A DNA stretch of 40,163 bases. It comes from a virus. Taxonomy: Duplodnaviria > Caudoviricetes. Of the stretch, positions 1-40,024 are shown in pieces. The DNA is taken from the IMG/VR virus record IMGVR_UViG_3300029179_000011, positions 1 to 40,163 of that record. One strand, 5' to 3'. The notes beneath the pieces were generated by a model. The model was not told where the DNA came from and made no database searches. It was given only the letters and a program-made list of their open reading frames with translations. The position numbers and the translations under genes are program-made. The first letter of the stretch is position 1. The number at the start of each line of letters is the position of its first letter.

Positions 1-119
1 TTGGTTAGACCGAAATCCCAAGGATCTGTCCATACAGACCATGATGGATAAATACTACCAATATTAGACCAAGTCCTATTGGTGGAACGTCTTAGAGTTC
101 CATAGGTAGTGAAGCTCTC
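1..119. repeat. Terminal direct repeat, left copy (circular assembly overlap)
   Basis: Bases 1-119 are identical to 40025-40143; the reading frame of the split tail gene is continuous across the join. Confidence 0.97.
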
Positions 120-1901
120 TTCAAAGGTGGCCCAGTTATTCTCTCTGTAATTATAGAGAAGAGTGCGAGAATTGAATTTTACGTTTGTGCGATTTGAAGG
201 GCAGAAGGTGAAGTAGACAAATTCTTTTTGGTAGTCTCGAACTGCCGTAATTCTAAAGGATTTATTTTGGGCTTGAGCGATATCAAAGACTTCATCGGGG
301 ATCTGGAGGTCAATCCTTTGAACGCTGGTAGAGGTAGTCATCGTGATTCCATAAGTACCAATCGAGAGCATTCCGGTATCTAATTTGATACCCGCAAAGG
401 TGCTGATCGATCCCAGTTCGGCGCTAACTGTCTGGAAGACAAAGGGTAGTGTGTCATTAGAAGTAAAAATGAGCTTGAGAGGTTGAGTCTCAAATAGGGA
501 GATCACAATATCCTCATTTTCACCCCACGTAACGATCTGATCGTCAATAGGAGCACCAATGAACCCCCCTCTTCCAGCTACGTTTTGGTACCAGGCTTCT
601 ACTTGAGGCTGCTGACCAGCCAAATCCACAGGAAGCGGATTGGTATAGAAGGGAGTCCCAACTTGGGAATAGACCACTCGGTTAGGGTATTGCTGCGCTC
701 CTGGAGAGACTTGAGAAGTTCTTAAATAGACGTTTCCAAAGAGGAGTCTATTTTTAAAGGGAAGGATTAGCTTCGCTCCCACTAAGTACATGGGATTAGG
801 ATTAGTGACGGGATCATAAGCACTGAGTGGAGGAGCGAAATTCACCCATCCTGGATTATTAGGCGGTGGCACAGAGGTCGGATCTCCATCATACCAGCGG
901 ATTCCATCCTCAGTAGGTGTAATGCCCGATGAGGTAAGGGATTGGAAAATCCCCGTATTATTGATGGCCATGGCACTCGAATCTAAAGGAATGCTGAAGG
1001 TGGTAGGGGTTAATACGGTGATTTGGAAAGAGCGTCCATTTAGATTAGCTATCCCATCAGCACTCGAATTCTCATTGAACCATACCCAGTCGTTAGTGAC
1101 TAGATTATGGGGAACGGCAGTCGTTATGACTGTCGGATTGGCATTCGTGACAGTTAAAATATTTTGAAAATGAAAACCAGGATTTCCATTGGTAGCCCAC
1201 ATGCATCCCGTGGCTGTATTTGTATTGAGGATGGTAGTCAGACCTAAGTAGTTGACAGTCCAGAACTGCTGATAATCTTGGCCATTCCAGACAAAAGGCG
1301 TGCCTGTATTTTTATAGAAGGTCACATCATAGAATTGATTGAGTCCCTGATCGAATCCATAGCTATATTTTTGATCGAAGGCAATCAGGATTGGCTGCGG
1401 GCTGTTGCCCACATTGAAGTCTTCCAAACCAAGAACGGGCAATGCGGGATAGTAGCTGAATGTAATTGTAACGGCTACTCCAGCACCTGCGGTATGTATA
1501 AGTGTCACGCTGCCAGTGGTATAATTTATCGTTCCACTGTTCCCTGGTGTAACTGAAGTGAGCGTCCCATCCCCTTGATCGGTAAAAACAATAGGCCCAG
1601 CGATAGTGATTACCACTGTTCCAGGCACGATTTGTGCATCAGGCTCTCCTGTAATGGGAGGGACGAGTGTAGAATAGATATTAAACGTCCAAGGAGAAGC
1701 ACCAGTTAATCCTAGAGAGCGGTTTGTCAGATCTCTGCGTAACCGAGCTAAAAACTGATCGCCTCTCTTGCGATAGGCTTTTCCTCTGAAAAGATAGAAA
1801 TTACTGAGTACAGGGAAAGCGTCATTATTGATATTGAACGCAGTAAGATCTTTTTCAAGACCTGTCTTAAAATTAGATATTACTAGCCTTTGTAATGACA
1901 T
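1..1901 (-). CDS. Tail nozzle / packaged-DNA stabilisation protein (P22 gp10 / T7 gp12-like), N-terminal part; continues across the origin into 40024-39301, about 874 aa in total
   Basis: ATG at 1901 (MSLQRLVISNFKTGLEKDLTAFNINNDAFPVLSNFYLFRG...). Absent from the ORF track, consistent with the frame running off base 1 without a stop. In frame with 39301..39981 after circularisation; lies between the adaptor and ejection genes. Confidence 0.75.
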   Translation of the reverse strand, partial: MSLQRLVISNFKTGLEKDLTAFNINNDAFPVLSNFYLFRGKAYRKRGDQFLARLRRDLTNRSLGLTGASPWTFNIYSTLVPPITGEPDAQIVPGTVVITIAGPIVFTDQGDGTLTSVTPGNSGTINYTTGSVTLIHTAGAGVAVTITFSYYPALPVLGLEDFNVGNSPQPILIAFDQKYSYGFDQGLNQFYDVTFYKNTGTPFVWNGQDYQQFWTVNYLGLTTILNTNTATGCMWATNGNPGFHFQNILTVTNANPTVITTAVPHNLVTNDWVWFNENSSADGIANLNGRSFQITVLTPTTFSIPLDSSAMAINNTGIFQSLTSSGITPTEDGIRWYDGDPTSVPPPNNPGWVNFAPPLSAYDPVTNPNPMYLVGAKLILPFKNRLLFGNVYLRTSQVSPGAQQYPNRVVYSQVGTPFYTNPLPVDLAGQQPQVEAWYQNVAGRGGFIGAPIDDQIVTWGENEDIVISLFETQPLKLIFTSNDTLPFVFQTVSAELGSISTFAGIKLDTGMLSIGTYGITMTTSTSVQRIDLQIPDEVFDIAQAQNKSFRITAVRDYQKEFVYFTFCPSNRTNVKFNSRTLLYNYRENNWATFEESFTTYGTLRRSTNRTWSNIGSIYPSWSVWTDPWDFGLT

Positions 1902-1904
1902 CTA

Positions 1905-2537
1905 TCACCCATAGTTCAATAACACTGCAAATCCGATCCACGTAGTGCTTCCATCTGTAAATCCTGCTCCGTCTTGCCGAATCATCTGGATCACCACGTT
2001 GTTGACCGCTTTAGATTGAACTGAAACGATCGGCTGCGCTCCAAATCCAGAGAAGGTATAGAGAGCCACATAGTCGGTATTTGGAAGAGATTGGTTAAAG
2101 TTAAACCGATATTGCCCTAATCCTAATCGTGTGACTGGAGTCACAGGGTCTAGATTGAGCGATCCAGGAGCTATAACTGGCACGACACCTACAGATGACT
2201 GACCAAAAGCCCAAATGGGAACCATAGGAAAGTTTAGAGTCGTATTATCCCTTCTCCAGAAAGGTCGAGTAACTGAAGCGGTGGTAAGACCAAACTGAAC
2301 ACCTTCATTCAGCCCAGGCGTGGGGATTATATCTCCAGGAGGGTTAGCGGTAGGTAAACCAGGGAGAGTCACCTTTGCGTGCTTCCTTCCCTCTACTGGA
2401 GTGGTATTCGTCCAAGGATAGTGATCACCAGTCGTTCCATATCCCGTATTGAGAGTCTGGAAGTTCTGAAGGATCTGATCCTGAGAATCCGAAGGGTCAT
2501 CTCCAGGTTGGGGAATATTAGGGGTATAGCTCGTCAT
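1905..2537 (-). CDS. Putative tail-associated structural protein (short fibre-like)
   Basis: 210 aa; N-terminal YTPNIPQPGDDPSDSQDQILQNF anchor-like segment and beta-rich C-terminus; within the structural operon. Confidence 0.55.
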   Translation of the reverse strand: MTSYTPNIPQPGDDPSDSQDQILQNFQTLNTGYGTTGDHYPWTNTTPVEGRKHAKVTLPGLPTANPPGDIIPTPGLNEGVQFGLTTASVTRPFWRRDNTTLNFPMVPIWAFGQSSVGVVPVIAPGSLNLDPVTPVTRLGLGQYRFNFNQSLPNTDYVALYTFSGFGAQPIVSVQSKAVNNVVIQMIRQDGAGFTDGSTTWIGFAVLLNYG

Positions 2538-6026: not shown

Positions 6027-6977
6027 TTATGCCGCTAAAGTACATCTAACGTTTCGGAGCCATGTCTCTTGCAAGATCGCCTGAGTCTGAGCGAATTTAA
6101 CGCCCAGAGTACCGTTCAGGGCGAGAGGCCCAGAAAAGATCGGCGGTCTGTAAAGCAGTTGGCTTGAATACCCGTCCTGGTCTATGTGTGCGTAGGATTC
6201 CCTAGCGATCATCATGTTGTTAAACACGTCGTTTCCATTCATGGAAGCTGCGCGTTGAACTGCTGATTCTGAGCTAGTTAAGATCCTAGCATTCAGTAAG
6301 GCTCCATATTCGCTGTAAATCACGTCATTTTGGTTCGGGTAGTTCCAAGAGGCAGTGAATTGCTGAATAGCGTCGAAAGTCGGCTGTAACTCTGTTGAAC
6401 AGAGTAAAAAGTAAGCCGCTCTTACTGGTGCTGTACCAAAACGGTCTTCCCCTTGCTTACCGGTTAGGAATTTGAATGCGTTTGCTGTATCCAAAGATGC
6501 AGCTACTGCACTTATATCCCTTACAGTTAGCTCAGTAGGATTGTCTCCGTTAGTGCCCCCACGGCAGTTATAGACCGAAGCAGCAGAGAGCAAGAAGTCT
6601 CTAAGGATGATATCCTCAGCTTGTCTCATTGCGACGCCCAAGCGCTCAGTTACCCATGAGAGGACTGGATCCTGGTCTTGGATAACGACCTGCTCGTTAA
6701 GGATGACAGATGTGCCATAGAAGGCCATCGCGGCATCGATAATCTCGCGGGTTGCCACTTGGGAAGGGGGTTCGATACCTGTGTTCCCTAATTGAACAAC
6801 AGGAGGTTGCAGGGGGACTGGGCGCAAGAAGCGCATAGTAGTACCACCCTGTCTTGGCATGCTGTATTTTTCCGCCGGAATTATATAGTTAAAATTCGGG
6901 GTCGGAACAGACAGCATCCCTGGTGCTAGCGACTGTAAAATAGGCGCTGGCAAGTTGCTTGTGGTTGTGATACTCAT
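6027..6977 (-). CDS. Major capsid protein, N4-gp56 family
   Basis: 316 aa; MP..GGTT.RF.R..PL, YG..V.L.EQV, D.ILRD.L and P..SGPLA..GT.G.KF motifs recognised as N4-gp56-like; follows the scaffold gene. Confidence 0.85.
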   Translation of the reverse strand: MSITTTSNLPAPILQSLAPGMLSVPTPNFNYIIPAEKYSMPRQGGTTMRFLRPVPLQPPVVQLGNTGIEPPSQVATREIIDAAMAFYGTSVILNEQVVIQDQDPVLSWVTERLGVAMRQAEDIILRDFLLSAASVYNCRGGTNGDNPTELTVRDISAVAASLDTANAFKFLTGKQGEDRFGTAPVRAAYFLLCSTELQPTFDAIQQFTASWNYPNQNDVIYSEYGALLNARILTSSESAVQRAASMNGNDVFNNMMIARESYAHIDQDGYSSQLLYRPPIFSGPLALNGTLGVKFAQTQAILQETWLRNVRCTLAA

Positions 6978-18418: not shown

Positions 18419-18842
18419 AAGGGTGTTTTTAAGCAACTATGATGTAATTCAAAGACTTAAAAAAAGAAACTTGATAGACGAAACCTCAAATGATTATGCC
18501 GTTCTACCTCGTGATCCGGATAAAAGAATTATTTTAGTTCACGTAGATCCTCGTTATCTGGTAGGATCTGACCGAGCTAAGTATTTTTCTTTAAATTCAA
18601 AGGAGGTTCGTATGAACTATTCAGATATGGCAAAAGCAGTAATGGAGGGCAAGAAGGCCCGACGCTCTAATTGGCCAGAAAGCATGCACTTGTGGTTCGC
18701 TTGTGAAATGATGCTCCATACGCATCCCTATTGGCCTGATCAAGGCAAAGTACTCTTTAGGGATAATCAGCTGGAAGGCTTCCCTTACATTTGCGAAAAA
18801 GATGATGCTATTACCAATGACTGGGAATTAGTTAGTGCATAA
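18390..18842 (+). CDS. Protein with C-terminal DUF2829 / Tad2-like domain (internal in-frame start at 18612)
   Basis: MNYSDMAKAVMEGKKARRSNW...D.I.NDWELV matches the DUF2829 pattern (GKKV.R..W ... D.LA.DW); AAGGAGG precedes ATG 18612. Confidence 0.6.
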   Translation: MTMKGILNNERVFLSNYDVIQRLKKRNLIDETSNDYAVLPRDPDKRIILVHVDPRYLVGSDRAKYFSLNSKEVRMNYSDMAKAVMEGKKARRSNWPESMHLWFACEMMLHTHPYWPDQGKVLFRDNQLEGFPYICEKDDAITNDWELVSA

Positions 18843-19551
18843 TTTTTATACACTTCTCTTTCAAATCGGTATTTGCTGTGGGATCAGTCTTATAGCCCTC
18901 CGCGTGGGAGAGAAGTGTTTAAACTCCTGGCTCTGTCTTTTGGCTGTTGCCATGAATTTATTTGTCACTAAGCAGATTACTCTGCTGGGTCTTGATGTAA
19001 CGGCTTCGGAAGCGTTAGCGGTTGCCTATCTCCTGGGACTCAGCCTGATCCAAGAGTATTATGGAAAGGAAGCTGCACGCAAACATGTTTTTACAGCATT
19101 CCTCTGTTGCGTCGGCTTCCTTTTTCTTACTCAGACTCATTTATTTTTTGTTCCCAATCAGTATGACGTCATGCATGGGCATTTCAGTGCCATTCTTCAA
19201 CCCATCCCTCGTTTAATCCTAGCCTCTATGGCGAGCTTTTTCATGATTCAGCTAGTAGATATAGCCTTTTTCTCGTTCTTGCAATACAAGACAAATGGAA
19301 GGCATCTAACAATTAGGACGGGAACCTGTCTGATTGTATCCCAGATTTTAGATACCACTATCTTTTCTTACCTGGGTCTTTATGGATTAGTAGAGAATCT
19401 CACCCATGTGATGTTGGTGAGCTTTGTGATTAAGACAGCTACGATTTTTCTTGCATTGCCTTATGTTTCTTTCTCAAAAAGAATCATCTCCTTTAGGCAG
19501 CAAAAACCCCAGGCAGTCGCCTGGGGTCTTAATATAATGCACAATCCGTAG
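18835..19551 (+). CDS. yhhQ: Queuosine precursor transporter (VUT/YhhQ family)
   Basis: Multi-TM protein; NLFVTKQI.L.G..VT, IQEYYGKE.ARK, PR.I.AS...F...Q.VD and SQ.LDT.IFS.LGLYG motifs. Confidence 0.9.
   Translation: MHNFYTLLFQIGICCGISLIALRVGEKCLNSWLCLLAVAMNLFVTKQITLLGLDVTASEALAVAYLLGLSLIQEYYGKEAARKHVFTAFLCCVGFLFLTQTHLFFVPNQYDVMHGHFSAILQPIPRLILASMASFFMIQLVDIAFFSFLQYKTNGRHLTIRTGTCLIVSQILDTTIFSYLGLYGLVENLTHVMLVSFVIKTATIFLALPYVSFSKRIISFRQQKPQAVAWGLNIMHNP
19502..19527 (-). terminator. Intrinsic terminator for the leftward recombination operon
   Basis: ACCCCAGGC-AGTC-GCCTGGGGT perfect stem followed by a T-run on the minus strand; lies inside the 3' end of yhhQ. Confidence 0.7.
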
Positions 19552-19629: not shown

Positions 19630-20484
19630 TTATCTATTTCCCATAATTTTCCAGCACTCGACTGGTTTTTTTCTAAACTTCTCTAGATCGACTCCTGTGA
19701 GCTGGGGAATTTTCCCGTAGTCGACGGATCCTTTCCTTAAGAAGCGGGTCACTTTTACGCCTCCACCTGTCGAACTCTGATTCCCGCACAAAGAAATTAA
19801 ACTCTCTCTTAGCTTTTTCTCCTCGCTCTCTAAGGCACTCAATTGGGAGTTGAGCTGTTTCCACTTCGAAGCTAACATGAACCACTCGGGATTGTCGATC
19901 TGGACGAAGTCCCTGTCGGTTAATTCGGGAGGATTGAGGTCTTGCATGCATATGTAAAACTCCTTCTCGATGGTAATTAATTTTTTAATATACTTATCAT
20001 CGCGGAAGAATTCAATAAGAACCCCCGCTTTGCCATCATATGAAAAATAATATCCCTTCTCCAACTGACATACCTCTAGCTGATGCTGAAGCTGAGGATA
20101 GTATTTATCAGGTATCTGCCCAGATAAAGCCTGCTGATGATCCTTTTCTCCAGGACATTTTATCTCAATTAATGTCTTCCCATCGGGGGATAAACCATCT
20201 AATGTGGCCATCATCCATGGCAATGAGTCATGAAATTTCACTTGAGGGGGAAGAGATTTTCCGAGTGAAAGTTCGATTTGTTCCCTTGCGAGTGGCTCTA
20301 GATTGTGCCCCCTCTCCATCGGGAATGTCATCTGCGTCTGAGGTAACAGATCGAGCTTCTTTTGCCATAGCGAGTAAGGAGTGTCATATGGAGACACCCC
20401 CATAATGACAGGGGCATCGCTGGCCCCTATCTTTTCTTTCCTCATGGCTTCCCATTCGGGAGTATTAGGAATTAAGTTACTCAT
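19630..20484 (-). CDS. YqaJ / lambda-exonuclease family recombination nuclease
   Basis: EW...R...IGASDA..IMGVSPY, M.RG..LE, A(T)LDG, IEIKC and YY.QLQHQL motifs; ATG 20484 after GGAGG. Confidence 0.92.
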   Translation of the reverse strand: MSNLIPNTPEWEAMRKEKIGASDAPVIMGVSPYDTPYSLWQKKLDLLPQTQMTFPMERGHNLEPLAREQIELSLGKSLPPQVKFHDSLPWMMATLDGLSPDGKTLIEIKCPGEKDHQQALSGQIPDKYYPQLQHQLEVCQLEKGYYFSYDGKAGVLIEFFRDDKYIKKLITIEKEFYICMQDLNPPELTDRDFVQIDNPEWFMLASKWKQLNSQLSALESEEKKLRESLISLCGNQSSTGGGVKVTRFLRKGSVDYGKIPQLTGVDLEKFRKKPVECWKIMGNR

Positions 20485-21121
20485 GTTCAGCCTCCATCTC
20501 ATCTAATTTAGAGACGATCCTCTTACGAATGGCATCGTAATTTTCTTTAGGTAGATTCTCAAAAGAGGTTAACCCTAACTTCTTGAGGTAATCTTTTACA
20601 TTAGACCTAAAGCCGTCTTCGCACTGATCAAGTAGAAGCTCAAGTTCAGTAGCTTGACCCGTGGTAATTATCCCTTTAGCGGGAGCAGCTGCTGGTTTCT
20701 TAAATGTCGCAGCAGGAGGAACTGGCTGCGTATAGGTAGCCGCATTGCCATCATCGTCCTCATCTGTAGTAACACCTACCAAGGCAGCTAAACTGTACCG
20801 TCTCATGTAGGTAATAGCTGATCCAATACTTTGGGCATCTTGCTTGGCTGATAAGACAGGAAGGCAAGAGCGAACCCACTGACCGCTTGCATGAGCAAGA
20901 GTAGTGAGCAGCACGAGCTGGCCATCTTTATAGTCCATCATCTGAAGAACGGAGAGACCGTTCTTAGTGAGAGGGTCTTTACAGGCGCTCCACACGCTGG
21001 CTAAGTCGGCATATTTACTCTTAAAGAAGGGATTCACGCTGTCTTTAAGAGCCGGCTGGATCTCTGCCTGTGCCTTAGAAAGGGCTGTTGCTAATTCGTT
21101 GATTTGCTCTGATTGGTTCAT
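20477..21121 (-). CDS. ERF-family single-strand annealing protein
   Basis: KDS.NPFFKSKYADL, H.SGQW and Q..GSAITY.RRYSL.A.VG...DEDDDGN motifs. Confidence 0.93.
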   Translation of the reverse strand: MNQSEQINELATALSKAQAEIQPALKDSVNPFFKSKYADLASVWSACKDPLTKNGLSVLQMMDYKDGQLVLLTTLAHASGQWVRSCLPVLSAKQDAQSIGSAITYMRRYSLAALVGVTTDEDDDGNAATYTQPVPPAATFKKPAAAPAKGIITTGQATELELLLDQCEDGFRSNVKDYLKKLGLTSFENLPKENYDAIRKRIVSKLDEMEAEHE

Positions 21122-21597: not shown

Positions 21598-21642
21598 CGT
21601 TAACATGTTAACAACATACCAGACCCGTTAACATATTAACAA
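21598..21642. promoter_or_regulatory. Two operator-like palindromes CGTTAACATRTTAACAA in the divergent control region
   Basis: GTTAACATGTTAAC (21599-21612, perfect palindrome) and GTTAACATATTAAC (21627-21640). Confidence 0.65.
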
Positions 21643-21685: not shown

Positions 21686-21717
21686 AACGGGCGATTTACC
21701 TAGGAGTGAACGGATAT

Positions 21718-21969
21718 ATGAAACTGCGTGAGTATTTAGATAAGAATAAAATTTCCATCAGTGACTTTGCTCGGCAATCCGAATTTACACGAACTTATTT
21801 ATCTCTTTTGCTCTCTGGCAAGACGCGCATCAGTCCGCGCACGGCAAAACTCTTAGCTATGTCTACCAAAGGAGAGGTTAGTGAAGAAGAACTATTAAGC
21901 ATGCATAAAGATGGTATTTTAAGAGAAAGAAATACAAAGAAAAATGTAGATAAAAATAGGGATAAATAA
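21718..21969 (+). CDS. Cro-like XRE-family HTH regulator
   Basis: MKLREYL......SDFA.....TRTYLS.LLSG...IS...AK...T.GEVS.EEL; first gene of the rightward operon. Confidence 0.8.
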   Translation: MKLREYLDKNKISISDFARQSEFTRTYLSLLLSGKTRISPRTAKLLAMSTKGEVSEEELLSMHKDGILRERNTKKNVDKNRDK

Positions 21970-22225: not shown

Positions 22226-22254
22226 AAAAAAGCCAGTCGTGTGTGACTGGCTTT
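22226..22254 (-). terminator. Intrinsic terminator upstream of the initiator, strongest on the antisense strand
   Basis: AAAGCCAGTC-6nt-GACTGGCTTT; the minus strand reads ...GACTGGCTTTTTT. Confidence 0.65.
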
Positions 22255-22298
22255 AACTATTTAGCAATGATATTTACCAACAAGGATTTCTCCTTATA
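22226..22298 (-). ncRNA. Candidate ~70-nt antisense RNA covering the initiator translation-initiation region
   Basis: Minus-strand TTGCTG (22333-22328)-17nt-TACATT (22310-22305) with extended TGn, ending at the U-tailed hairpin. Confidence 0.45.
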
Positions 22299-23443
22299 TG
22301 ACTGAATGTACCACAATCGACAGCAACCAGCAACAAAAATCGAAGACCACTATTCGAGTGGCTCATAACAGAGAAAATCCCTTTGTTATGATTAATCGGT
22401 CAGCTTTGAGGCATCCCAAGTTGACTCTCAAAGCTCGTGGCCTGTGGGCTTATCTTCTTTCCTTCCCTGATGATTGGGAATTTAACATGGCTCATTTGGT
22501 CAACACCCTTCCTGAAGGGCGCACTGCCATTTACAATGCATTTGATGAACTTATCGAACATGGATATGTCATTAGATTACAATACCATGGATCTAAAGCC
22601 CATAATACTGTGGGATTCCAAAAGCTCCAATATATCATTTTTGAGTTTCCTTCCACTCCCGAAGAACGGGAACTTAAGTACTCGGAGTTTGAAAAACATT
22701 GCATTCATTCAGGGCAGATTAAAATAAATTCTGTGCATTCAGGTTTTGTGAATACAGGTTCTGTGAATGCAGGTAATCAACCACTACGTAATAGTGATAG
22801 TGAATATGAAAATGAAGATAAGAATATTAATGCGCCACCTGAAGGTGACGCCAAACCAAAACCCTCTTCTTTATCAGACGCGAAAAAGAAGACACCTAAA
22901 GTTCCATTCCGATCAGCCTGTCTCAAAGAGAGACTTCCTGACCATCCAGCCACTGAAAAATTCAAAAATTATTTTGACACACCACTCATTGGCATAGACG
23001 ATCGTGACCATGAGGAGCTTGTCGCTCAGTATGGGGCTAAACTTGTAAGTGACGCTTACGAGTTCCTGGCTGATTGGAAGCTATCTAAAGCTGAAGTATC
23101 TCCTAAGACAGTCAAAGAGCACACAGATCTACGCAGATTAAAGAAATGGGTCTTTGCTGAGCTGCTCAAGAATCCCCAGAAGATGACGGGGGTAGGATCT
23201 CATCGTAAGTGGGCTATCGAGATTGATAAGAAGCCATTAGATCCAGTGGAAAAGAGAAGATATGCATGGGGGACTAAGACCGAAAAGAGAGAGGAAGAAC
23301 TATTAGACTACTTGAAAAAGGTGCACAAAAAGGAGGGTCGTCTCCTCGGTAAAATGTCTAATGCGCAAGTGGATGAATTAGAGGCTGAGATGTTGCAATA
23401 TCTTGAGAAGCAAGGAGATGGCAATGAGCTGGGATCGCTTTAA
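22298..23443 (+). CDS. Replication initiator protein (N-terminal winged HTH)
   Basis: NPFVMI.R..L....LT.KARGL.AYLLS.PDDW.F...EGRTAI..A..EL.E.GY; internal iterons; followed by a DnaC-like ATPase. Confidence 0.8.
   Translation: MTECTTIDSNQQQKSKTTIRVAHNRENPFVMINRSALRHPKLTLKARGLWAYLLSFPDDWEFNMAHLVNTLPEGRTAIYNAFDELIEHGYVIRLQYHGSKAHNTVGFQKLQYIIFEFPSTPEERELKYSEFEKHCIHSGQIKINSVHSGFVNTGSVNAGNQPLRNSDSEYENEDKNINAPPEGDAKPKPSSLSDAKKKTPKVPFRSACLKERLPDHPATEKFKNYFDTPLIGIDDRDHEELVAQYGAKLVSDAYEFLADWKLSKAEVSPKTVKEHTDLRRLKKWVFAELLKNPQKMTGVGSHRKWAIEIDKKPLDPVEKRRYAWGTKTEKREEELLDYLKKVHKKEGRLLGKMSNAQVDELEAEMLQYLEKQGDGNELGSL
22730..22774 (+). repeat. Three 15-bp tandem iterons; putative replication origin inside the initiator gene
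   Basis: TCTGTGCATTCAGGT / TTTGTGAATACAGGT / TCTGTGAATGCAGGT, a partial copy at 22700-22714, and an AT-rich tract just downstream. Confidence 0.65.
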
Positions 23444-23966
23444 GGAGATAAATAGTATTTTAAAAGTCTATAGCGACTGCTCCTTAAAAACTCTCGATCA
23501 GAAGCAGAATGATGCTAAAGGCTTTCTTGATCATCCAGGCCCTCTCTTGCTTCAAGGTGAATGCGGAACCGGCAAGACCTACTTTATGTTCACCCTTATC
23601 AGGGAGATCTTTGAGACTAAGAAGAGGCATATCTCTGAAGTGCTCTTTATGAGAGCGAAGAATCTGAGTGATAAGATGGAAGAGGAGTTTAAGAAATATG
23701 GCTCAACTCATGGTGTTATTGAAAGGGTTGTGGAAGCCCCTTACCTTTTCATTGATGACTTTGGTGTTCAGGGTAAAGGGGACAGGATGGAGAGAGACTT
23801 TTATGAGATTGTCGATGTACGGATGGGAAATATGCAGCCTACTGTTTTTTCTACTAATCTGACAGACGAGGAGATAAGGGACACATTCGGTGCTCGTATC
23901 CACTCTAGGCTTAAAGTGTGTGAAAAACTGTTATTTAACGGAGAAGATCGAAGGAGTTACTTTTGA
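23424..23966 (+). CDS. DnaC/IstB-like AAA+ helicase loader
   Basis: Walker A GECGTGKT, Walker B LFIDDFG, PTVFSTNL and GARI.SRL motifs. Confidence 0.9.
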   Translation: MSWDRFKEINSILKVYSDCSLKTLDQKQNDAKGFLDHPGPLLLQGECGTGKTYFMFTLIREIFETKKRHISEVLFMRAKNLSDKMEEEFKKYGSTHGVIERVVEAPYLFIDDFGVQGKGDRMERDFYEIVDVRMGNMQPTVFSTNLTDEEIRDTFGARIHSRLKVCEKLLFNGEDRRSYF

Positions 23967-29224: not shown

Positions 29225-29716
29225 ATGGAAAACGTAGAAGAAGTCCCAGTTTCTGATGAGAATAGAGAAGCCAATGGCTACTTTAAGAAAGGCCATTCGC
29301 TGGGAGGCCGTCCCCGCCTCTATACTCCAGAGAAACTATCTGAGCTTGCTAAAAGCCTAATCGAGTGGATCGAAGCCGCTCGTAAGAGAAATAAATTCGT
29401 CCTCCTATCTGATTGGTGCTTCAAGGAGCGCTTCCCTCCCTTCCATTTTGCTGAGAATATCGCTCGTAGTGAGGAGTTCAAAGAGGCATATCTATGGGCT
29501 AAGGCGTGGCAAGAGCATGCCGTTGCAAGTGGCGCTCTTAGTAAAGATCTAGACGCCCGATTCTCTCAGTTCTTCCTATCGGTCAATCACGGCTGGAGCC
29601 TTGATAAAGATCGTGAGAATAAGGAAGAAAAGCAAAAGTCTAATCTTGAGAGGATGTCTGACTCTATTATCGATGAAGTCCACTCCAATGATGAGGATTC
29701 TGAGGGTCATGAATGA
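29225..29716 (+). CDS. terS: Terminase small subunit
   Basis: G.FKKG...GGRPR.YT, EF.EAY..AK..QE and F.L...HGW motifs (P22 gp3-like); coupled to terL. Confidence 0.75.
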   Translation: MENVEEVPVSDENREANGYFKKGHSLGGRPRLYTPEKLSELAKSLIEWIEAARKRNKFVLLSDWCFKERFPPFHFAENIARSEEFKEAYLWAKAWQEHAVASGALSKDLDARFSQFFLSVNHGWSLDKDRENKEEKQKSNLERMSDSIIDEVHSNDEDSEGHE

Positions 29717-31038
29717 TAGGCTTCTCATCTAAGCAAAAGCTCTGCTTTGCAAAGTCTTACTCCCGAATCAATATAGCTGAAGGCGCCGTCTCTTCAGGTA
29801 AATCCCACGTCATGATGTACCGGTTTTTGGATGAATTACGCAAAGGCCCAATGGGTGACGGTGTAACCGGATATGATTTTATGATAGGAGGGAAGTCGGA
29901 AACCTCTGTAATTAGGAACGTTCTGCGTCCCTTAGACAAGGAATTAGGAAATATTTTAAGGTATAATCATTCACAGAGGTATTTCGATTTATGGGGTAAC
30001 CGCGTCTATATAGTAGGTGCAAATGACGAAAGAGCCGAAGGTAAAATCCGAGGATGGACATTAGGGGGAGCGCTCATTGATGAAGCCACACTCTCTCCGC
30101 AGAGTTTTTTCAAGATGGCTCTTTCACGTTTACGTATTAATGGCGCTAAGATGCTCGCTACTACAAACCCTGATTCTAAATTTCATTGGTTAAAAACAGA
30201 TTTTTTAGATAAGTTCGCAGATGATCCACAAGAATTGGCAAGTTTTAAGTTTAAACTCGATGATAACCCCTATCTCTCAGATTCATACAAACAATCCCTC
30301 AAAAAGGAATATGCCGGACTCTGGTATAGGCGTTTTATTGAGGGTGAATGGGTGCAGGCAGAGGGCGCTATCTACGACTTCTTTGACCACGACAGGCACA
30401 CTGTCAAGGAAGCCCCTACCTACGCTAAGTACTTCTGTCTCGGTGTCGATTATGGCCAAAAAAATCCTTTCGCCGCAGTGCTCGTCGGATTCAATGACGA
30501 TCACCATCCCGCTATTTGGGTGGAGAAAGAGTACTATTGGGACTCAGTTGCCATGGGATACTCTAAAACAGATGCCGAATATGCGGAAGACCTGCGCAGA
30601 GAGTTCTCCGGATACCCAATCAAGCTTATCTACCTTGACCCTTCAGCTCAGTCTTTCGAGACCGAGCTTAAGCGAGCCAGAATGCCTGTCAAGCAGGCAA
30701 AGAATGACGTCATCGACGGAATCCGATTTGTTGGGACACTTCTGTCTCAAGGGGATCTCGTTATCAAAAGGCAATGCCTCAATCTTCTAAAGGAATTTGA
30801 AAGTTATGTGTGGGACGAAAAATCTATTAGATTGGGAGAGGATAAGCCAATCAAATTACGAGATCACGCTCTGGATGCTCTGCGGTATGTACTTTTCACT
30901 CATTGGGGAAATAAGCATTCTCTAAAAGAGACTACTGCCGAAGATTCCCGTCAGGCTCGTTACAACCAAAACCCGATGGGACAGCAGGGATTCGGGCCGA
31001 ATTCTTGGGGTTGGCAGGTGCAGGGAAGGGGCTTCTAA
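29713..31038 (+). CDS. terL: Terminase large subunit (PBSX family)
   Basis: Walker A GAVSSGKS, LIDEA, TTNPDS..HWLK, DNPYL, GVDYG..NP, DPSA and DHALDALRY. Confidence 0.95.
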   Translation: MIGFSSKQKLCFAKSYSRINIAEGAVSSGKSHVMMYRFLDELRKGPMGDGVTGYDFMIGGKSETSVIRNVLRPLDKELGNILRYNHSQRYFDLWGNRVYIVGANDERAEGKIRGWTLGGALIDEATLSPQSFFKMALSRLRINGAKMLATTNPDSKFHWLKTDFLDKFADDPQELASFKFKLDDNPYLSDSYKQSLKKEYAGLWYRRFIEGEWVQAEGAIYDFFDHDRHTVKEAPTYAKYFCLGVDYGQKNPFAAVLVGFNDDHHPAIWVEKEYYWDSVAMGYSKTDAEYAEDLRREFSGYPIKLIYLDPSAQSFETELKRARMPVKQAKNDVIDGIRFVGTLLSQGDLVIKRQCLNLLKEFESYVWDEKSIRLGEDKPIKLRDHALDALRYVLFTHWGNKHSLKETTAEDSRQARYNQNPMGQQGFGPNSWGWQVQGRGF

Positions 31039-32015: not shown

Positions 32016-32417
32016 TTATTTAACTTGAGCTGCTTGGGAAGCCTGAACAGCAAGTTCAGCTTTGAGATTGGCTGCACTGGCCTCCTCAATTTCCTTTTGC
32101 TTGCTAGCGAGCGCTTCATTATCCACAGTTGGATTATTAATGTAAGCCCAAGCTTGAACAGGGTAAGACTTAGTAGGATGAGGAAGATCATAATTCCCAT
32201 TAGCATCTCTATAAGTAAGAATGAGGTTAGGCGCAATTTGGCCCATATTACACCATAATACGATCCAGCGATCGGGATTTGGGTGTTCAACGTGGAAGTT
32301 TTTCCATTCTAGTTGAGCTGTTTGGAATGTCATGCGTTTCATGACTTCCTTAGGATCGATATAGGGAGGGTGTTGAGGCTTTTCAAGCTTTTCAACTTTT
32401 TTATCTTGTTTAGTCAT
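32016..32417 (-). CDS. Hypothetical protein (DUF551-like core)
   Basis: W......P......VLW ... VQAWAY; coupled to the upstream gene. Confidence 0.6.
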   Translation of the reverse strand: MTKQDKKVEKLEKPQHPPYIDPKEVMKRMTFQTAQLEWKNFHVEHPNPDRWIVLWCNMGQIAPNLILTYRDANGNYDLPHPTKSYPVQAWAYINNPTVDNEALASKQKEIEEASAANLKAELAVQASQAAQVK

Positions 32418-32670
32418 CTGTTTTGCTCTCTGCTTTTAGTTTTTGTTGGATTGCTTCTAATATCCAAGCGGTGCGCGTCAGAGCAGCCCTTTCCTTCACT
32501 TTCTGATCTACAGCTTCGAAAATGTGATTGGGTATCCTTAAACAGATAGTTTTCCAATCAGGCTTTTCAATTTTAATTTCCATATCGGATTTGACGTGCG
32601 CCCCACCGGCTATATATCTCAGAGTATCCTCAACGTCCTCAAATTTGTCTATTTTTTTGTTTACACCCAT
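32410..32670 (-). CDS. Ribbon-helix-helix centromere-binding partner of ParA (ParG-like)
   Basis: Likely ATG 32670; YIAGGA segment, then WKTICLRIP..IFE.VD.......LTRTAWILEAIQQKL RHH pattern; directly downstream of parA. Confidence 0.75.
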   Translation of the reverse strand: MGVNKKIDKFEDVEDTLRYIAGGAHVKSDMEIKIEKPDWKTICLRIPNHIFEAVDQKVKERAALTRTAWILEAIQQKLKAESKTDD

Positions 32671-32752
32671 ATATGTCTCACATATCTCATTTATATCTTT
32701 ATCATATATTACAACATTCTCGCAAATATATGGCATCATATATGGCATATAT
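32669..32752. repeat. ATAT array with ~11-bp phasing (candidate centromere site 2)
   Basis: ATAT at 32671, 32682, 32693, 32704, 32726, 32738, 32749. Confidence 0.6.
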
Positions 32753-33391
32753 CTCATCAGCAGCCTTCTGATCGCGTTCTTTGCGCTCTAATTCATAAAC
32801 CCCCAATCCTTGAGAAGCCGCATTTCCAAAGGCTTTACGATGGCCGATAAAGGCCTTGATTAGCTTGAAATGAGGACATTCTTCTAGGATTTTGAAGGCC
32901 TCATCATTATCTACTCCGCGGGCATCAGCCTGATTAATACAGACAAGAACCTTCATATTCCGATTGAGGGTAAGAACTCCATCAATTAGCTCTTTGACTT
33001 GGCCAACCGTCCAGACATCGAAGGAACGAGGCTTGAAAGGAATCACAAAGTAGTCGCATATGCATAGAGCTGATCGTTGAGAAGTTGTATCTCGCCCTCC
33101 AGTATCTACGATAATCTCATCATAATCGTTCTTTAGGCGTTTGAGTTGCTCATATAAGAGTTTTCCCCCTAATTTAATGGTAGGAAAACTTAAGGCTTGC
33201 CATTCCCCAAGTTCTTCTACTTTCTGCTTCCAGTGATGATCTCTTTGCTCAGCCCAATCTGAAGCAGATCCCTGTTCGTCAGCATCGACAAGTAAGACTT
33301 TACGGCCTAGATGGGCTAAGACGACAGCCAGGTTAGTGGCCAGGGTAGTCTTGCCTGTTCCACCTTTAATTCCCCCTATGACAACTATCAT
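32702..33391 (-). CDS. parA: ParA/ParF-type partition ATPase (type Ib)
   Basis: Deviant Walker [28 protein letters not shown] and R.AF..A...GLGV.E motifs; no N-terminal HTH. Confidence 0.95.
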
Positions 33392-33393
33392 AC

Positions 33394-33480
33394 ATATCTC
33401 CTGTATATATCCGGTATATATCGGATAATATGATAGAGATATGGGAGATATTTAAGATATGTTAAAGAAAATATTGTCAA
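33394..33480. repeat. ATAT array overlapping the parA promoter (candidate centromere/operator site 1)
   Basis: ATAT at 33394, 33405, 33416, 33428, 33439, 33448, 33457, 33471; TTGACA on the minus strand at 33480-33475. Confidence 0.6.
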
Positions 33481-34826: not shown

Positions 34827-34828
34827 AA

Positions 34829-35107: not shown

Positions 35108-35121
35108 CGCCTATAGTCCTT

Positions 35122-35149
35122 ACGTCTGATAATATATTTTATGTTACAG
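35122..35149 (+). other. dif-like XerCD recombination site
   Basis: ACGTCTGATAA-TATATT-TTATGTTACAG; 11-6-11 layout, right arm 9/11 identical to the E. coli XerD arm TTATGTTAAAT, left arm ending in ATAA. Confidence 0.75.
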
Positions 35150-35576: not shown

Positions 35577-35686
35577 TAGGGTTTATCTTATTTATAGCTG
35601 GGATCTTTGGCATGCTAATTGCTTTTACTCCCTCAGATACAATAGAAGATATGGAAATGCGAGGGAAGGAAGACGGCAGTATTTAA
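35573..35686 (+). CDS. Small single-TM protein (37 aa, not in ORF track)
   Basis: ATGA-coupled; MIGFILFIAGIFGMLIAFTPSDTIEDMEMRGKEDGSI. Confidence 0.45.
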   Translation: MIGFILFIAGIFGMLIAFTPSDTIEDMEMRGKEDGSI

Positions 35687-37077
35687 GGAGCGAGGCTCTC
35701 CTCTAACTCTTCCTGGTGCTCTTTTAGAGCTTTTTCTAGAGCTTTGAGGCTCTTTTCCGTCTTAGCCACGTTGTTAGAGGCTGCGTTTTTCAGTACTTCT
35801 TGATAATGACGACGAAGCTCAGGACTCTTAACCACTCTATATCCCAACTTAAAGGCCTGATAGAGTCCTAATGCACTTCCTCCTGCTGCTCCAGCTAACC
35901 CAGTGATAGCAGGGGAGAAAATAGCTCCAGCACCAGCAGCAGCCGAAGTACCGAGTCCTAAAAGAGTCTTCATTATAGGATTGGTGATTTTATTTCCGAA
36001 ATGTTTCCGGAAGAAGTTGGAGAGTTTATTGCTCTGCTCATAGACCGCAAAAGCTCTATTGGCTTGTTTGTGGAGATCCAGAAATTCAGGATTTTGAATC
36101 TCTCCATATTTGGTTTGAGCTTCCACAATCTTATCTTTTACTTGATTGAGGTTACGAACGGCTTTTTGTTTGACTTCTCTAGGCGCCTGGATTTCGAATC
36201 CACCCGCTTCCTTGATGGCCTCATTAATTTTAGTTTGAAATTTAGGAAGTTCTTCCACAGAAATCACGCCCTCATCAGAGATGGCTGAGATTACTTCATC
36301 GATCTTATTGAGAGCAGGCTTATCGGAAGTGGCTATACCACCTTTTTTTAATTCCTTTTGCAGATCTTGCATGGAAGTTTTGAGAGCATGAGCGTCTGTT
36401 TTTGCACCTTCTGGAATAGTGCTATTACGCTGTTTAAACAAATCCCCAGCGAATTTCTTAGCCCCTCCTTGAGAGATCCTTCCACCTAAAAGGTCGAGAA
36501 ATACCATGACTCCTAAGCCCCCATAAGTGCCCTCTTTCTCGCCAAATTTACTCTTGAGGCCTTCCTTGGTAAGAGTAGATGCAATTGGAATGCCAAGATT
36601 ACGAGCGAATCCATATCCCCATGATCCTGGGAGAGCCATAGAGGCAAATGTCTCAGAGGCTTCATCTACAGCCTTTTCAAACTCATTCTTAGGCTTAGTG
36701 TAGCCAGCTGTTAGCTTTTCACTGCCTTTCTTAAGAACGTCTGAACTCAGATAGCCAATAGGAGCTTTAGGAAGGCCGAGGAGAGAAGTGATGAAATTAG
36801 AGATATCACCAGGAGCACCAAGGACAGTCTCTGCAATACGGGAGGTTGTACGGGCTTGTGCGCGCTCAATTTCTCGTTCCAGATCATTCTCACCCTCAAA
36901 GGGAAATTCTTGAGGTTTTTGTTGTTCAACTGGAACAGGTTCGGGTTCTTTTTCTTCTTCTAAATCAGCGAATACGATATTCTCAGCCGCAGCCGGAGTT
37001 TGCGGCTTAACTTTTTCCTCTTCGATCTCAATTTCTGGTTCCTCTTCATCTAAGAAGTCGAAAACAGTCTTAGGCAT
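35683..37077 (-). CDS. Putative DNA ejection / internal virion protein
   Basis: About 464 aa; acidic N-terminus, helical body, Gly/Ala-rich hydrophobic C-terminal segment; last gene of the structural operon. Confidence 0.55.
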   Translation of the reverse strand: MPKTVFDFLDEEEPEIEIEEEKVKPQTPAAAENIVFADLEEEKEPEPVPVEQQKPQEFPFEGENDLEREIERAQARTTSRIAETVLGAPGDISNFITSLLGLPKAPIGYLSSDVLKKGSEKLTAGYTKPKNEFEKAVDEASETFASMALPGSWGYGFARNLGIPIASTLTKEGLKSKFGEKEGTYGGLGVMVFLDLLGGRISQGGAKKFAGDLFKQRNSTIPEGAKTDAHALKTSMQDLQKELKKGGIATSDKPALNKIDEVISAISDEGVISVEELPKFQTKINEAIKEAGGFEIQAPREVKQKAVRNLNQVKDKIVEAQTKYGEIQNPEFLDLHKQANRAFAVYEQSNKLSNFFRKHFGNKITNPIMKTLLGLGTSAAAGAGAIFSPAITGLAGAAGGSALGLYQAFKLGYRVVKSPELRRHYQEVLKNAASNNVAKTEKSLKALEKALKEHQEELEESLAP

Positions 37078-38278
37078 TAGAAACCCTCGCAAATATTTCT
37101 ACATCATATCCAGCCTTACGGGCTGCACTTTCGGCATCTTTACCGTATCTCTGCTTGAAGACTTTAGCCTTTTCACGAGTTAAAGGCGTTCCTTTAGGTA
37201 CTTGCCTAATCACTGCGAGTTCATCAGGATTTTGCTCTTCTTTAGTCCTTTGAATCTGGTACATAAGCTGATCGCGGCGTTTATCTTCCCATTTCTGCAT
37301 ACGCTCGCCAGCTCTCTTCCCAATATTTCCACGCACAAATCCATATTCGGCCATGTCTTCATCTTCTAATTGATCGGTGAGTTTGATTTTTTCTTCTTCA
37401 CGATCAACCCAGTAATTCATGAGGTCAGCTACGATCATATTCGCTTCTTGATCTCGTCCAATTCTGACCATCGCATCGCTAATCTGCTGCTCAATCCACT
37501 GGTTGGGACGGCTTCCAGCTTTAGCTAAGTTATTGATAAAAAAGTCTTTAGTGGCAGATTTAAGAAGGGCGGAGTTTGCATTTCTAAGAGGCTCTACACC
37601 TAATACATCAGCAAACCAGGCCCCCCACCCAGAAGTATCTCCAGCAGACGCGGACTGTTTAATTAGATTTGCTGCTGTTTTCTTCTCTTGGATAGAATCT
37701 CGGATTTCGTCGGTCTTCTTGAGGATGTCTCCGGCTCTCTTCCATTCAAATTCCCTATCCGCGATAAATTTGTCTCTGAGGTCTTTTTCTTGTTTGTGGG
37801 TTTCTTTTCGGGTGGCTTCTTGCTGTTTTTGCAAGATGTTACCCAATTGCGGATTGAGGATAGAAGCGATTGTAACTTGCTCATCTGATAAATCTCCTGG
37901 TTTAAATCCACCTGATTGCCCTAATCCAGGCATTCCTTCAGATGGAGAGGTTTCTGTATCTAAGAATGGACTAGCCCCGCCTGCTCCTCCTCCCATACCT
38001 AATGCTTCTAATAGTTGAGCATTACGCTGATCTTTAGCTTTTTCTTTTAATAGAGCTGCTTGAACTGAGGGTTCCATTGCTACGTCTGGTAATCCCAAAG
38101 CCTTAGCAGTTGCCTTTTGATTGGCGATTTTTCTCTCTTCTGCTTCTACGTCTGATTTGCGTTTCCTCTCTTCTTTTTGTCTCTCTAGGAATCTGTCAAT
38201 CGTGCTATCCACTCCTGGAGAAGCATGTTGAAGAAATCTGGAGAGTTTTGAAGGGGATTGATCAATTATCTGAACCAT
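37070..38278 (-). CDS. Putative DNA ejection / internal virion protein
   Basis: 402 aa, helical and charged, at the podoviral ejection-gene position. Confidence 0.55.
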   Translation of the reverse strand: MVQIIDQSPSKLSRFLQHASPGVDSTIDRFLERQKEERKRKSDVEAEERKIANQKATAKALGLPDVAMEPSVQAALLKEKAKDQRNAQLLEALGMGGGAGGASPFLDTETSPSEGMPGLGQSGGFKPGDLSDEQVTIASILNPQLGNILQKQQEATRKETHKQEKDLRDKFIADREFEWKRAGDILKKTDEIRDSIQEKKTAANLIKQSASAGDTSGWGAWFADVLGVEPLRNANSALLKSATKDFFINNLAKAGSRPNQWIEQQISDAMVRIGRDQEANMIVADLMNYWVDREEEKIKLTDQLEDEDMAEYGFVRGNIGKRAGERMQKWEDKRRDQLMYQIQRTKEEQNPDELAVIRQVPKGTPLTREKAKVFKQRYGKDAESAARKAGYDVEIFARVSNA

Positions 38279-38285
38279 TTCGTCC

Positions 38286-38801
38286 TCACAAGAACAAAGG
38301 AATTATTTTCATTAACATCGAGGTGATATCACCGGCTGTATCCCACCCACTGCTTTTCTTCTCTAGGAACGAATCATAGGGCTTCTGACTCAAGAGATTC
38401 TGAGAGAGTCCCAATAGCCTTTCGATTGCTCCTTGCTGAAGACCTAGCCTCTGGGATTGCAGATTCTGGGCAAGATCTCCAGCTGCTCCCGATGTGGCCT
38501 GTTGGAAGGCAGAGGAGTCTAAAGCTCCAGAGCCAAAGCCTGCGAACCGGCTACCTAGCTGTCCAATAGCTTTATTAAATGAGCTGTAAGCTGGAGCTTC
38601 GAGTTGCTCAAACATCGACTCATCACCTCCTGAGAGTCTAGAGAGAAAATCTAATCCTCCTTCTAGCCCTCCTCCTCCACTTAGACCACCTAAGAGCTTT
38701 TGGAAAAGTTGCATCTGCCCAGGGGTGAAATTAGGCACATTGCGTAGTTTATACCCTGAGATATTCGCTTTTGGTGCAGAAACACCGGCTGGAGCTGACA
38801 T
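38286..38801 (-). CDS. Putative small DNA-transfer (pilot) protein
   Basis: 171 aa, Gly/Ser/Gln-rich (FTP.QMQL, GSRFAG.GSGA..SS.FQQA). Confidence 0.55.
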   Translation of the reverse strand: MSAPAGVSAPKANISGYKLRNVPNFTPGQMQLFQKLLGGLSGGGGLEGGLDFLSRLSGGDESMFEQLEAPAYSSFNKAIGQLGSRFAGFGSGALDSSAFQQATSGAAGDLAQNLQSQRLGLQQGAIERLLGLSQNLLSQKPYDSFLEKKSSGWDTAGDITSMLMKIIPLFL

Positions 38802-38809
38802 ATTGCCCT

Positions 38810-39304
38810 CTAATTTAAAATATATTCTAACACTATCATAGCACTAAATCCTGTCCAATTACCAGAATTTGTAACAATTTCTATATTCCTCGTGGTTTTA
38901 TTAACCCGAAGGTAAGGCGCATCATCTGTGCGCGTCATATTCCATGGAGTGAGAGGAACGGCAATCGTGGTCGATTCTGCTGTGCCATAGATATTTACGA
39001 ATTGAGTGGTGGCAGTAATCGCTATATTTGTAGGAATCGTGGCCGTTCCAGCATTTGGGAGAGCTGCTAGCGTATAGACTTGGCGGTAGCTCTGCCTTTT
39101 TCTCTCATTCTGGACATCATTATAGTATTTATTTCTCGTATCGATCTGAACTTTATCGTAGATTCCACATGTACTGATATTTACGTTGAATGCCGTATCA
39201 TTATAGGACTTAGAGAGAACTGTCTCTAGCTCTACAGGGTTTTGTGGAAATTTCCGAGAGGTGAGAAGGTAAGGGGATTGAAACTGATTAGAATTAGAAC
39301 TCAT
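38810..39304 (-). CDS. Putative tail-associated structural protein
   Basis: 164 aa, ATGA-coupled to the nozzle gene, beta-rich C-terminus ending IVLEY. Confidence 0.55.
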   Translation of the reverse strand: MSSNSNQFQSPYLLTSRKFPQNPVELETVLSKSYNDTAFNVNISTCGIYDKVQIDTRNKYYNDVQNERKRQSYRQVYTLAALPNAGTATIPTNIAITATTQFVNIYGTAESTTIAVPLTPWNMTRTDDAPYLRVNKTTRNIEIVTNSGNWTGFSAMIVLEYILN

Positions 39305-40024
39305 ACGAGGATCGGCCCCTTATAGAGATCGATTGCCAAGGCGTGCAGGATGATCTCCTCTTGGTTAACATTTAGATCTCTCATCTGCAATTCACTGAGA
39401 GTGATCCCTAATTGGACGGTATCCCCATTGATACTGGGACTTAATCGATGCCAAATCTGGGCTTGTCCTGCGCCAAAAGCCGTATCAATTTCTGGACAGG
39501 TGAGCATCACGTTCGTATAGGCCAAATAGGGCTGAATATTAGGATCGTTAGAGGCAGTAGCGGAGTTTTGGCTTGCATAGAGGTTAACTGTGACCTGAGG
39601 TGGCATATTACCCTCATCAGGGAAAGGAGTGGCCTCTAAGAGCAAGCGCGATGTTCCTATTCGGACTTGTCTGCCTTCTTGCCAGTAGATAGGGAATTGC
39701 TTGGTTTGTAGGAATGGCCGACTTAATTTAGCGAAGACCCCGCCACCGATATACACTCCAGTAAACACATCATTTATAGAGAAGACGTCAGCTGTTTGGA
39801 CTGTGACTTGCTGAACGGTTCCATTGAGATTCGTAGATCCCATCATTTGGGAAATATAGATAAAGTCGCCTGTTAGAAGGCCGTGATCTGGTGAAGTGAT
39901 CGTATTGGGGATCACGCCTGTATTAATGGCTTGAATAAATCGGGTTTGCTGCTCTGAAGTTCCGAGTCCTCTCATCACCACAAAGCCCTGCTGATTCCCT
40001 CCGATAATAACTGGCTGGAAGGAG
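39301..40024 (-). CDS. Tail nozzle / DNA stabilisation protein, C-terminal part (joined to 1..1901)
   Basis: Frame stays open upstream of 39981 through the terminal repeat (...WSVWTDPWDFGLTNSFQPVIIGGNQQGFVVMRG...). Confidence 0.75.

Follow-up and report, generated by a model that had tools for sequence, protein, structure and literature searches.

A chlamydial-type dif copy and a partition cassette in an integrase-free short-tailed phage genome: plasmid maintenance and integration at dif as possible prophage states

Some tailed phages persist as plasmid prophages, as known for the P1 type, and others, such as LME-1, use the chromosomal site dif and the Xer recombinases of their host. Each of these mechanisms alone has precedent. 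Here the virus record IMGVR_UViG_3300029179_000011 is compared with such systems; the whole stretch of 40,163 nucleotides, one virus record, is called the window. It holds a podovirus-type phage genome with a chlamydial-type copy of dif and a partition (par) cassette. A sequence-only reading had presented it as an integrase-less tailed phage that lysogenises as a circular episome.

LME-1 is a short-tailed Legionella phage that integrates at dif and requires a modified second site for its stability (sections on integration in PMC9765430 and PMC12407071). It resembles the window as a short-tailed phage of an intracellular bacterium, with a dif mimic, use of host Xer and a lambda-O-like initiator. 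It differs in its single recombinase XerL, its unrelated dif sequence and its mainly integrated state (same sections), whereas the window has a ParA with a ribbon-helix-helix (RHH) partner and intact dif arms. No kinship by sequence was seen between the two: the capsid profile had no match in PDB, and portal matches were weak and not labelled LME-1.

Phage-plasmids of the P1, SSU5 and F116 groups are, in the main text of their survey (PMC7969092), like the window in their full virion genes, lack of an integrase, partition and dimer-resolution function. Their resolution is carried out by a phage recombinase, whereas that of the window would be carried out by host XerC and XerD. Few phage-plasmids are Podoviridae, and the strings 'chlamyd' and 'Xer' are absent from this main text (PMC7969092). 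The portal of the window had no match in the 72,556 plasmids of PLSDB, its large terminase (TerL) matched only unrelated PBSX-type plasmid phages, and no virion genes shared with the groups P1, SSU5, N15, F116 and AB were found. The sequence-only reading, too, had not recognised the combination from the described phage-plasmid groups.

A dif-like site used by host XerCD is also present in the integrative mobile elements that exploit Xer (IMEXs) VGJ and TLC of Vibrio and in the gonococcal genomic island (GGI) of Neisseria (PMC5357621, passages on attachment sites). These are non-tailed elements or islands with sites that diverge in the XerD-side core or arm (same passages), whereas the window keeps both arms and is one base off the common host cores. 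The window shares with IMEXs a dif-like site and the lack of an own integrase. The pattern of their integrated state was seen for a distant relative (provirus G458 in the Chlamydiota genome G309), not for the window or its close relatives.

For Chlamydiota, the isolated phages named in the relevant part of PMC5010888 are microviruses (Chlamydiamicrovirus). Tailed-phage genes are described in that part and in the plasmid sections of PMC7846284 only as plasmid cargo or in islands, with a terminase in an island (PMC5010888) and phage genes on plasmids of P. massiliensis and C. sequanensis (PMC7846284). As extrachromosomal elements or phages of Chlamydiae with ParA or terminase genes, they may be compared with the window. 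The plasmids are unlike it in that they encode Pgp7/8 integrases and proteins of the tail tip protein L type, where the window, a member of an unrelated family, has an N4-gp56 capsid, a P22-like portal and no recombinase. No described tailed-phage family of Chlamydiota was found in the literature covered, mostly outside subscription journals, and the pages of PMC8242063 that were consulted contain nothing on hosts.

The circle, its dif copy and its partition cassette

The reading favoured here, to which an even chance is given, is that of an integrase-free podovirus-type phage of an environmental chlamydia, present as a low-copy plasmid prophage that is segregated by ParA and a predicted RHH partner and whose dimers are resolved at dif by host XerC and XerD. 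It is favoured because the dif arms are intact, the core is absent from 150 listed host rows and the par cassette is intact. ParA and its partner would segregate the phage circle, with the partner presumably binding both of two arrays of ATAT repeats. Dimers, probably produced by the YqaJ/ERF pair of the phage or by host recombination, would be resolved by XerC and XerD at the dif copy. The intact arms together with a non-host 6-bp core would permit self-by-self resolution and hinder crossover with the chromosome. Lytic growth would proceed from a lambda-type origin inside rep, with a DnaC-like loader.

The circle of 40,024 bp that the sequence-only reading described is closed by an exact 119-bp terminal direct repeat (1-119 = 40025-40143), by an open reading frame (ORF) of 874 amino acids (aa) that reads across the join without a stop, and by contigs that read across it.

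1..119, no strand: terminal direct repeat, copy 1, an assembly overlap closing the 40,024-bp circle
40025..40143, no strand: terminal direct repeat, copy 2, an exact repeat match
39301..40024 (5′ part 1-1901), - strand: 3′ part of a conserved 874-aa gene of the structural module that spans the join, from the ORF and relatives
40144..40163, no strand: non-phage tail, a library artefact that terminates unrelated contigs

In relatives the join-crossing gene is a single ORF of 841, 867 or 928 aa, and its product is likely a podoviral tail nozzle, judged by position. Past 40143, contigs of two runs continue into the window from position 120 onward; runs were compared with window 20164-40163, and both are of one study, possibly the source of the record. 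The last 20 bases are not phage, with unrelated contigs ending in the same 20 bases in all three runs compared, and are presumably a random-amplification primer. Circularity is equally expected of any circularly permuted virion DNA. No RNA dataset carrying the window appeared in the run listing.

35122..35149, + strand: chlamydial-type dif copy ACGTCTGATAA-TATATT-TTATGTTACAG, arms intact, core not among 150 listed chlamydial cores

The dif-like site noticed earlier matches the chlamydial chromosomal type. It lies far beyond chance, with no match at one mismatch or fewer in 60 simulations; a first, looser pattern was replaced because it came near chance in the window and in genomes. At 11 of 11 positions the left arm agrees with the dif predicted for C. 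abortus and for P. amoebophila, and among the 22 rows with this arm in the consulted part of supplement 2 of Kono et al. (PMC3025954), 14 are chlamydial and eight are not. Of 201 Chlamydiota genomes, 159 contain the chlamydial motif, in nearly every case as a single copy (reversed-pattern control: 6); among 151 Pseudomonadota, where the pattern used was longer by two bases, 1 matched. The core TATATT occurs in none of the 150 chlamydial matches listed, by hand count, with 28 further matches outside the list. Within the phage family the arms are conserved while the cores drift: 31 sites, most of them chosen for their exact arms, have 26 distinct cores, and three of the 31 end in ATG versus 56 of the 150 listed host rows (hand count). 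The genomic place of dif varies widely across 35 mapped sites. An exact dif scan of IMG/VR (35 of 64 parts scanned) gave 119 loci; of the 80 with flanks, 45 have some protein in common with this phage, 26 have a core structural one in common with it and about 35 have none. A PLSDB search with the dif region returned chance-level matches only. An argument from a dif placed opposite the origin and from the polarity of FtsK-orienting polar sequences (KOPS) was discarded, as dif and the candidate origin do not face each other across the circle and the five sites of the E. coli KOPS motif are too few to use. A promoter-like site (10/12) at 35129-35158 on the - strand overlaps dif and faces the gene run 34829-35107; it may be due to chance.

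The absence of a recombinase, also part of the sequence-only reading, was borne out by hidden Markov model searches: in all six frames of the window, PF00589, PF00239 and PF07508 gave no match, while the controls did. A tyrosine integrase is present in none of 19 relatives found by their capsid, and PF00589 in none of 43 records tested. In the complete relative G007 (capsid 89% identical), which has no dif, a small serine resolvase occupies the interval from the corresponding ejection-gene block to TerL, the region of dif and par in the window; three further records hold a homolog of this resolvase. The dimer-resolution function appears to be exchangeable across the family, being served by dif or by a small serine resolvase. 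Separately, a 172-aa ORF at 678-1196, - strand, of L364 (from a 113-kb contig), also present in G460 and G429, has no Pfam or PHROG match; we take it to resemble the N-terminal part of an integrase without the catalytic domain.

Type Ib partition systems, such as ParF/ParG and delta/omega, combine a short Walker ATPase with a small RHH partner and repeat arrays. The cassette of the window is like them in its short Walker ATPase, its small partner encoded downstream, for which an RHH domain is predicted at the C-terminus, and the arrays flanking parA. It is unlike them in that the partner family is without a Pfam name and in that fold, binding and function are predicted only.

32702..33391, - strand: short ParA ATPase, 229 aa, type Ib-like, with a Walker motif at the N-terminus and no N-terminal helix-turn-helix (HTH)
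32410..32670, - strand: 86-aa partner, likely an RHH centromere-binding protein, from weak family matches
33391..33480, no strand: array of phased ATAT repeats upstream of parA, a candidate parC/operator, from density and phasing
32661..32760, no strand: array of phased ATAT repeats that covers the 3′ end of parA and the start of the partner, a candidate parC, from density and phasing

ParA matches phrog_164 (E 5e-45) and reaches 150.7 bits with NF041546, under the cut-off of 180 of that model. The start of the partner at 32670 was set by alignment with 14 homologs. Weak, concordant family hints, namely matches below cut-off and an RHH cluster in Atlas (0.93, rank 21), make an RHH fold of the partner likely, predicted at its C-terminus; its structure model is of low confidence (pTM 0.28), and no fold match was obtained with Foldseek or in PDB. 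From the ParA and RHH pair proposed earlier, ParA is thus firm and the fold of its partner likely. The two phased ATAT arrays hold up as well: at 12 and 10 per 100 nt they are the densest stretches of the genome, the next one having 4 and the maximum in 100 simulated genomes being 7. Spacing is mostly 11-12 nt (range 9-22), and both arrays recur at the same two positions in the relative G002, not in G006.

ParA is found in 2 of the 19 capsid-found relatives and in none of the 11 that are at least 90% complete, and tblastn with the par cassette found nothing in 24 further family records with dif or in three bin contigs. A family-wide par kit was rejected on these counts, and par is an accessory add-on in the family. 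The claim of a complete plasmid-maintenance kit falls with it, the iterons and the candidate antisense RNA counted in that kit having a lambdoid layout. Outside the family, the closest ParA homologs seen are 55-56% identical and come from Chlamydiota genomes (6 of 250 matched); against PLSDB plasmids identity is at most 44% among the 25 matches listed. Two of the six chlamydial homologs adjoin tyrosine recombinases (Parachlamydiaceae bin, ParA-partner pair). One of these cases, a phage fragment in a Parachlamydiaceae bin (L115, G021:C187), combines this ParA-RHH pair and a tyrosine recombinase with terminase genes and a toxin-antitoxin-like pair, a gene set that may be likened to a P1-like kit. 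RHH-like partner homologs also occur where no ParA was detectable, at G005:20699-20941 and G438:31524-31679 and in L149 and L197.

Host and relatives

The host is probably a member of Chlamydiota, an environmental chlamydia, and this assignment is held with good confidence because of the dif arm, the queuosine-precursor transporter, ParA, the prophage in G309 and the F-box and U-box genes of relatives.

18835..19551, + strand: queuosine-precursor transporter, with an identity of up to 53% to genes on chlamydial chromosomes

This protein has matches in 160 of 201 Chlamydiota genomes, the best at 47-53%, and 10 plasmid matches do not exceed 36%; the comparison set consisted of Chlamydiota genomes and plasmids. 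Of the genes compared, chlamydial ones give the best scores with both the transporter and ParA, and the transporter gene of many chlamydial genomes is found 1-70 kb from dif. Among relatives there are F-box and U-box genes and a weak match to the N-terminal part of Pgp3 (L047:1082-1666; L048:691-1599; L051:7629-8288), which may resemble a small eukaryote-association cargo. Homolog searches with the partner and with a 71-aa membrane protein gave no named host. The frequency of the capsid in genome bins was rejected as host evidence, since it does not discriminate from Nitrospirota. A gene with a Tad2-like domain adjoins the transporter (window 18390-19551, + strand), and the same pair occurs in G462.

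The window belongs to a large uncultured family without tyrosine integrase, in which dif is common and par accessory. Cultured phages offer no close match, with eight phage records at 21-24% for the portal and one at 21% for the capsid. In seven of the 11 near-complete relatives, which were identified through the capsid only, dif stands above the shuffle maximum, in four of them clearly, and dif-like sites are kept across the whole portal tree (a quick tree of 47 rows). In two Chlamydiota bins the phage and its presumed host differ in core: in G276 the family phage, on its own contig, has TATATC versus TTGATC in the single phage-free dif of the bin, and in G173 the phage contig, with a 99-bp end repeat, has TATCCA versus TATATA. 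The binning of both pairs may be wrong.

A stretch of the Chlamydiota genome G309 is identical to the provirus G458. There, a 35.7-kb prophage lies between dif copies at 41,986 and 77,697 that have one core in common; the left arm is altered in one copy, and the other copy is intact. Housekeeping genes are found on both sides, PF00589 is absent from the prophage and rep adjoins the junction. One intact and one modified site, and rep next to the junction, are also what is described for LME-1 in the portions cited above (PMC9765430; PMC12407071). The sole named homolog of a protein from the G309 flank is from a Parachlamydiaceae bacterium. A Panacea-domain gene pair of the prophage is duplicated just outside the junction near 77,697 of G309:C1 (85% over 816 nt). 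A search of 401 Chlamydiota genomes with the P22 portal matched 18; of the 11 examined, only G309 had two flanking dif copies, and most others had few or no matches to this phage. A capsid-like remnant in G195 has no dif nearby. Another Chlamydiota bin, G163, holds a 35.3-kb circular contig (C101) with a P22-like portal, a weak dif-like site and no tblastn match to this phage. Two unrelated phage-like elements, G453 and G444, have the same chlamydial-type dif and a different ParA, and G453 also tail-fibre-assembly genes and a primase-helicase. In many relatives (L036, L039, L040, L041, L035, L113) the capsid gene is interrupted by insertions of 0.3-2 kb, probably introns.

Plasmid, integrated or lytic

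Several observations weigh against a plasmid resolved at dif. The genome was found only in two runs of one study that resemble amplified viromes, and in no cellular sample. The window core is identical at five of six positions to the common host cores TATATG and TATATA, from which it is one last base away, and VGJ-type elements integrate with mismatches on the last-base side of the core (PMC5357621, same passages). The dif copy is 12.4 kb from the candidate origin and not opposite to it. Among near-complete relatives, 4 of 11 have no dif above the shuffle maximum; ParA is missing in 17 of 19 and in 24 of 24 relatives. The complete relative G005 has no match for dif, ParA, resolvase or integrase, and retains a lone partner homolog. 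As regards the chlamydial host, the capsid was found in 7 of 399 Chlamydiota (centre genome excluded), not clearly above 1 of 120 Nitrospirota; capsid matches fall in 12 bins of many phyla, two of them chlamydial, so that binning is unreliable; and the eight non-chlamydial rows of Kono et al. show the same dif arm in the consulted part of that supplement.

The dif copy may instead be an attachment site, so that the phage would integrate at chlamydial dif via host XerC/XerD as LME-1 does, with par stabilising the excised circle or both states alternating. This explanation, the main rival and considered rather unlikely, had been overlooked when circular-episome lysogeny was first proposed, and G309 and LME-1 are its precedents; the episome itself is still the best single reading for this genome. 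Integration is illustrated by G458 between its two dif copies, and signs of it may be seen in G012, with dif-like sites at 267 and 2838, the first with a host-type core and a divergent right arm like attP of TLC or GGI, and in the altered arms of G001, G008 and G009. The near-host core of the window, the rarity of par among relatives and the chlamydial transporter gene often near dif fit integration too. On the other hand, G458 is distant from the window (capsid 21%, within the same PHROG family; portal 24%; on the quick portal tree, a long branch), and it has a fragmented terminase. Of the 19 relatives found by their capsid, not one bears a provirus classification, and among the best 80 metagenome capsid loci a single one is on a contig above 43 kb, with its dif copy internal. 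No contig of the runs compared leaves the window at dif, which has little weight if these runs are viromes. The arms of the window are intact, unlike those in LME-1 and G309: both integrated cases show the opposite pattern of a host core with one damaged arm (G309; PMC9765430, as far as its integration section goes). The resolvase swap, the core data and this LME-1 rule tip the balance from integration towards a plasmid; integration retains its weight because the core is one base off host cores and VGJ-type elements integrate despite such mismatches. Apart from these cases, G447 has two dif-like sites, at 1641 and 2023.

The same plasmid mechanism could operate in a non-chlamydial host, for example in Nitrospirota, Desulfobacterota or Acidobacteriota with the same dif arm. 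The non-chlamydial rows of Kono et al., the spread of capsid contigs over bins of many phyla and the viral dif loci without any protein of this phage are consistent with it, but the identities of transporter and ParA to Chlamydiota, the integrated relative in G309, the eukaryote-type F-box and U-box domains of relatives and the absence of a lysis family match among the 70 ORFs scanned make it improbable. Hardly more credit, and in fact slightly less, is given to an essentially lytic or carrier-state phage, in which par and dif would be recent passengers without a role in lysogeny. It would account for a single small HTH regulator with no match to a peptidase-type CI, for the rarity of par and for G005, which is complete without all of these modules. 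It accords poorly with the presence of dif in 7 of 11 near-complete relatives found independently of dif and across the whole portal tree, with arms that are conserved while cores drift, and with both ATAT arrays being kept in G002.

While the plasmid prophage resolved by host XerCD is preferred for the window, both states, plasmid and integrated, appear within the wider family. Tentatively, and with the odds somewhat against it, a rule may be formulated for the whole family of integrase-free short-tailed phages of Chlamydiota, which are obligately intracellular, in which one 28-bp dif copy sets the prophage state. Intact arms with a private core would give an XerCD-resolved plasmid, to which par is added or in which a serine resolvase is swapped in, and a host core with a damaged arm would give stable integration. 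The likely chlamydial host, absent from the sequence-only reading, is the most novel point, followed by a family apparently using one borrowed site in two ways. If true, a widespread podovirus family would alter the view of what reaches bacteria inside amoebae and other eukaryotic cells, and would be a route of gene flow into such bacteria; F-box and U-box genes are present in relatives. A single family with the two uses of a borrowed dif would also provide a concrete sequence rule, testable with purified recombinases.

Virion, replication and regulatory genes

The 70 ORFs were scanned against protein families, and 20 of them in a further profile scan.

6027..6977, - strand: N4-gp56 family major capsid protein, TIGR04387
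9612..11735, - strand: P22-like portal, from a family match
29225..31038, + strand: small and large terminase (TerL of PBSX type), from a family match
22298..23443, + strand: lambda-O-like initiator (rep) with HTH_36 domain, from a family match
22729..22773, + strand: three 15-bp repeats inside rep, candidate origin iterons, from a repeat search
23403..23966, + strand: DnaC-like helicase loader, from a family match
22229..22254, - strand: terminator hairpin for a possible oop-like antisense RNA, 44 nt upstream of the rep start
21599..21640 (21599-21612, 21627-21640), no strand: two 14-bp palindromes, candidate operators of a divergent control region, from the sequence
21706..21969, + strand: 87-aa Cro/CI-type HTH regulator, from a family match
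19630..21121, - strand: YqaJ exonuclease and ERF annealase, from family matches

As the sequence-only reading had it, virion and packaging genes are complete, as in phage-plasmids, with the N4-gp56 capsid (TIGR04387 at 84.8 bits versus a cut-off of 60), the P22-like portal and the PBSX-type TerL. Tape-measure, sheath, lysis and recombinase families had no match among the 70 ORFs.

The initiator is lambdoid and not a plasmid Rep. In lambda, the origin sits within O (PMC6022878, abstract), and the leftward oop RNA ends at tO in a tO-oop-pO layout (PMC5869508, likewise in the passage concerned). The iterons in rep and the leftward terminator match this layout and are ordinary lambdoid features, no evidence for plasmid copy control. 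Of the iteron-bearing initiator claimed before, the three repeats inside rep were retrieved and their copy-control meaning was given up. Similarly, of the antisense RNA over the ribosome binding site of rep, the minus-strand terminator (22254-22229) was found and no minus-strand promoter was called; with a lambdoid layout, antisense copy control of plasmid type was rejected as evidence.

The small HTH protein is the sole regulator, with no peptidase-type CI match among the 70 ORFs, and a promoter-like site at 21608-21637 overlaps the palindromes of the control region. A RusA gene is also among the 70 ORFs. Finally, a match to the Rfam DUF3800-VIII RNA at 28142-28209, + strand, scores barely above the gathering score (41.4 vs 40.2).

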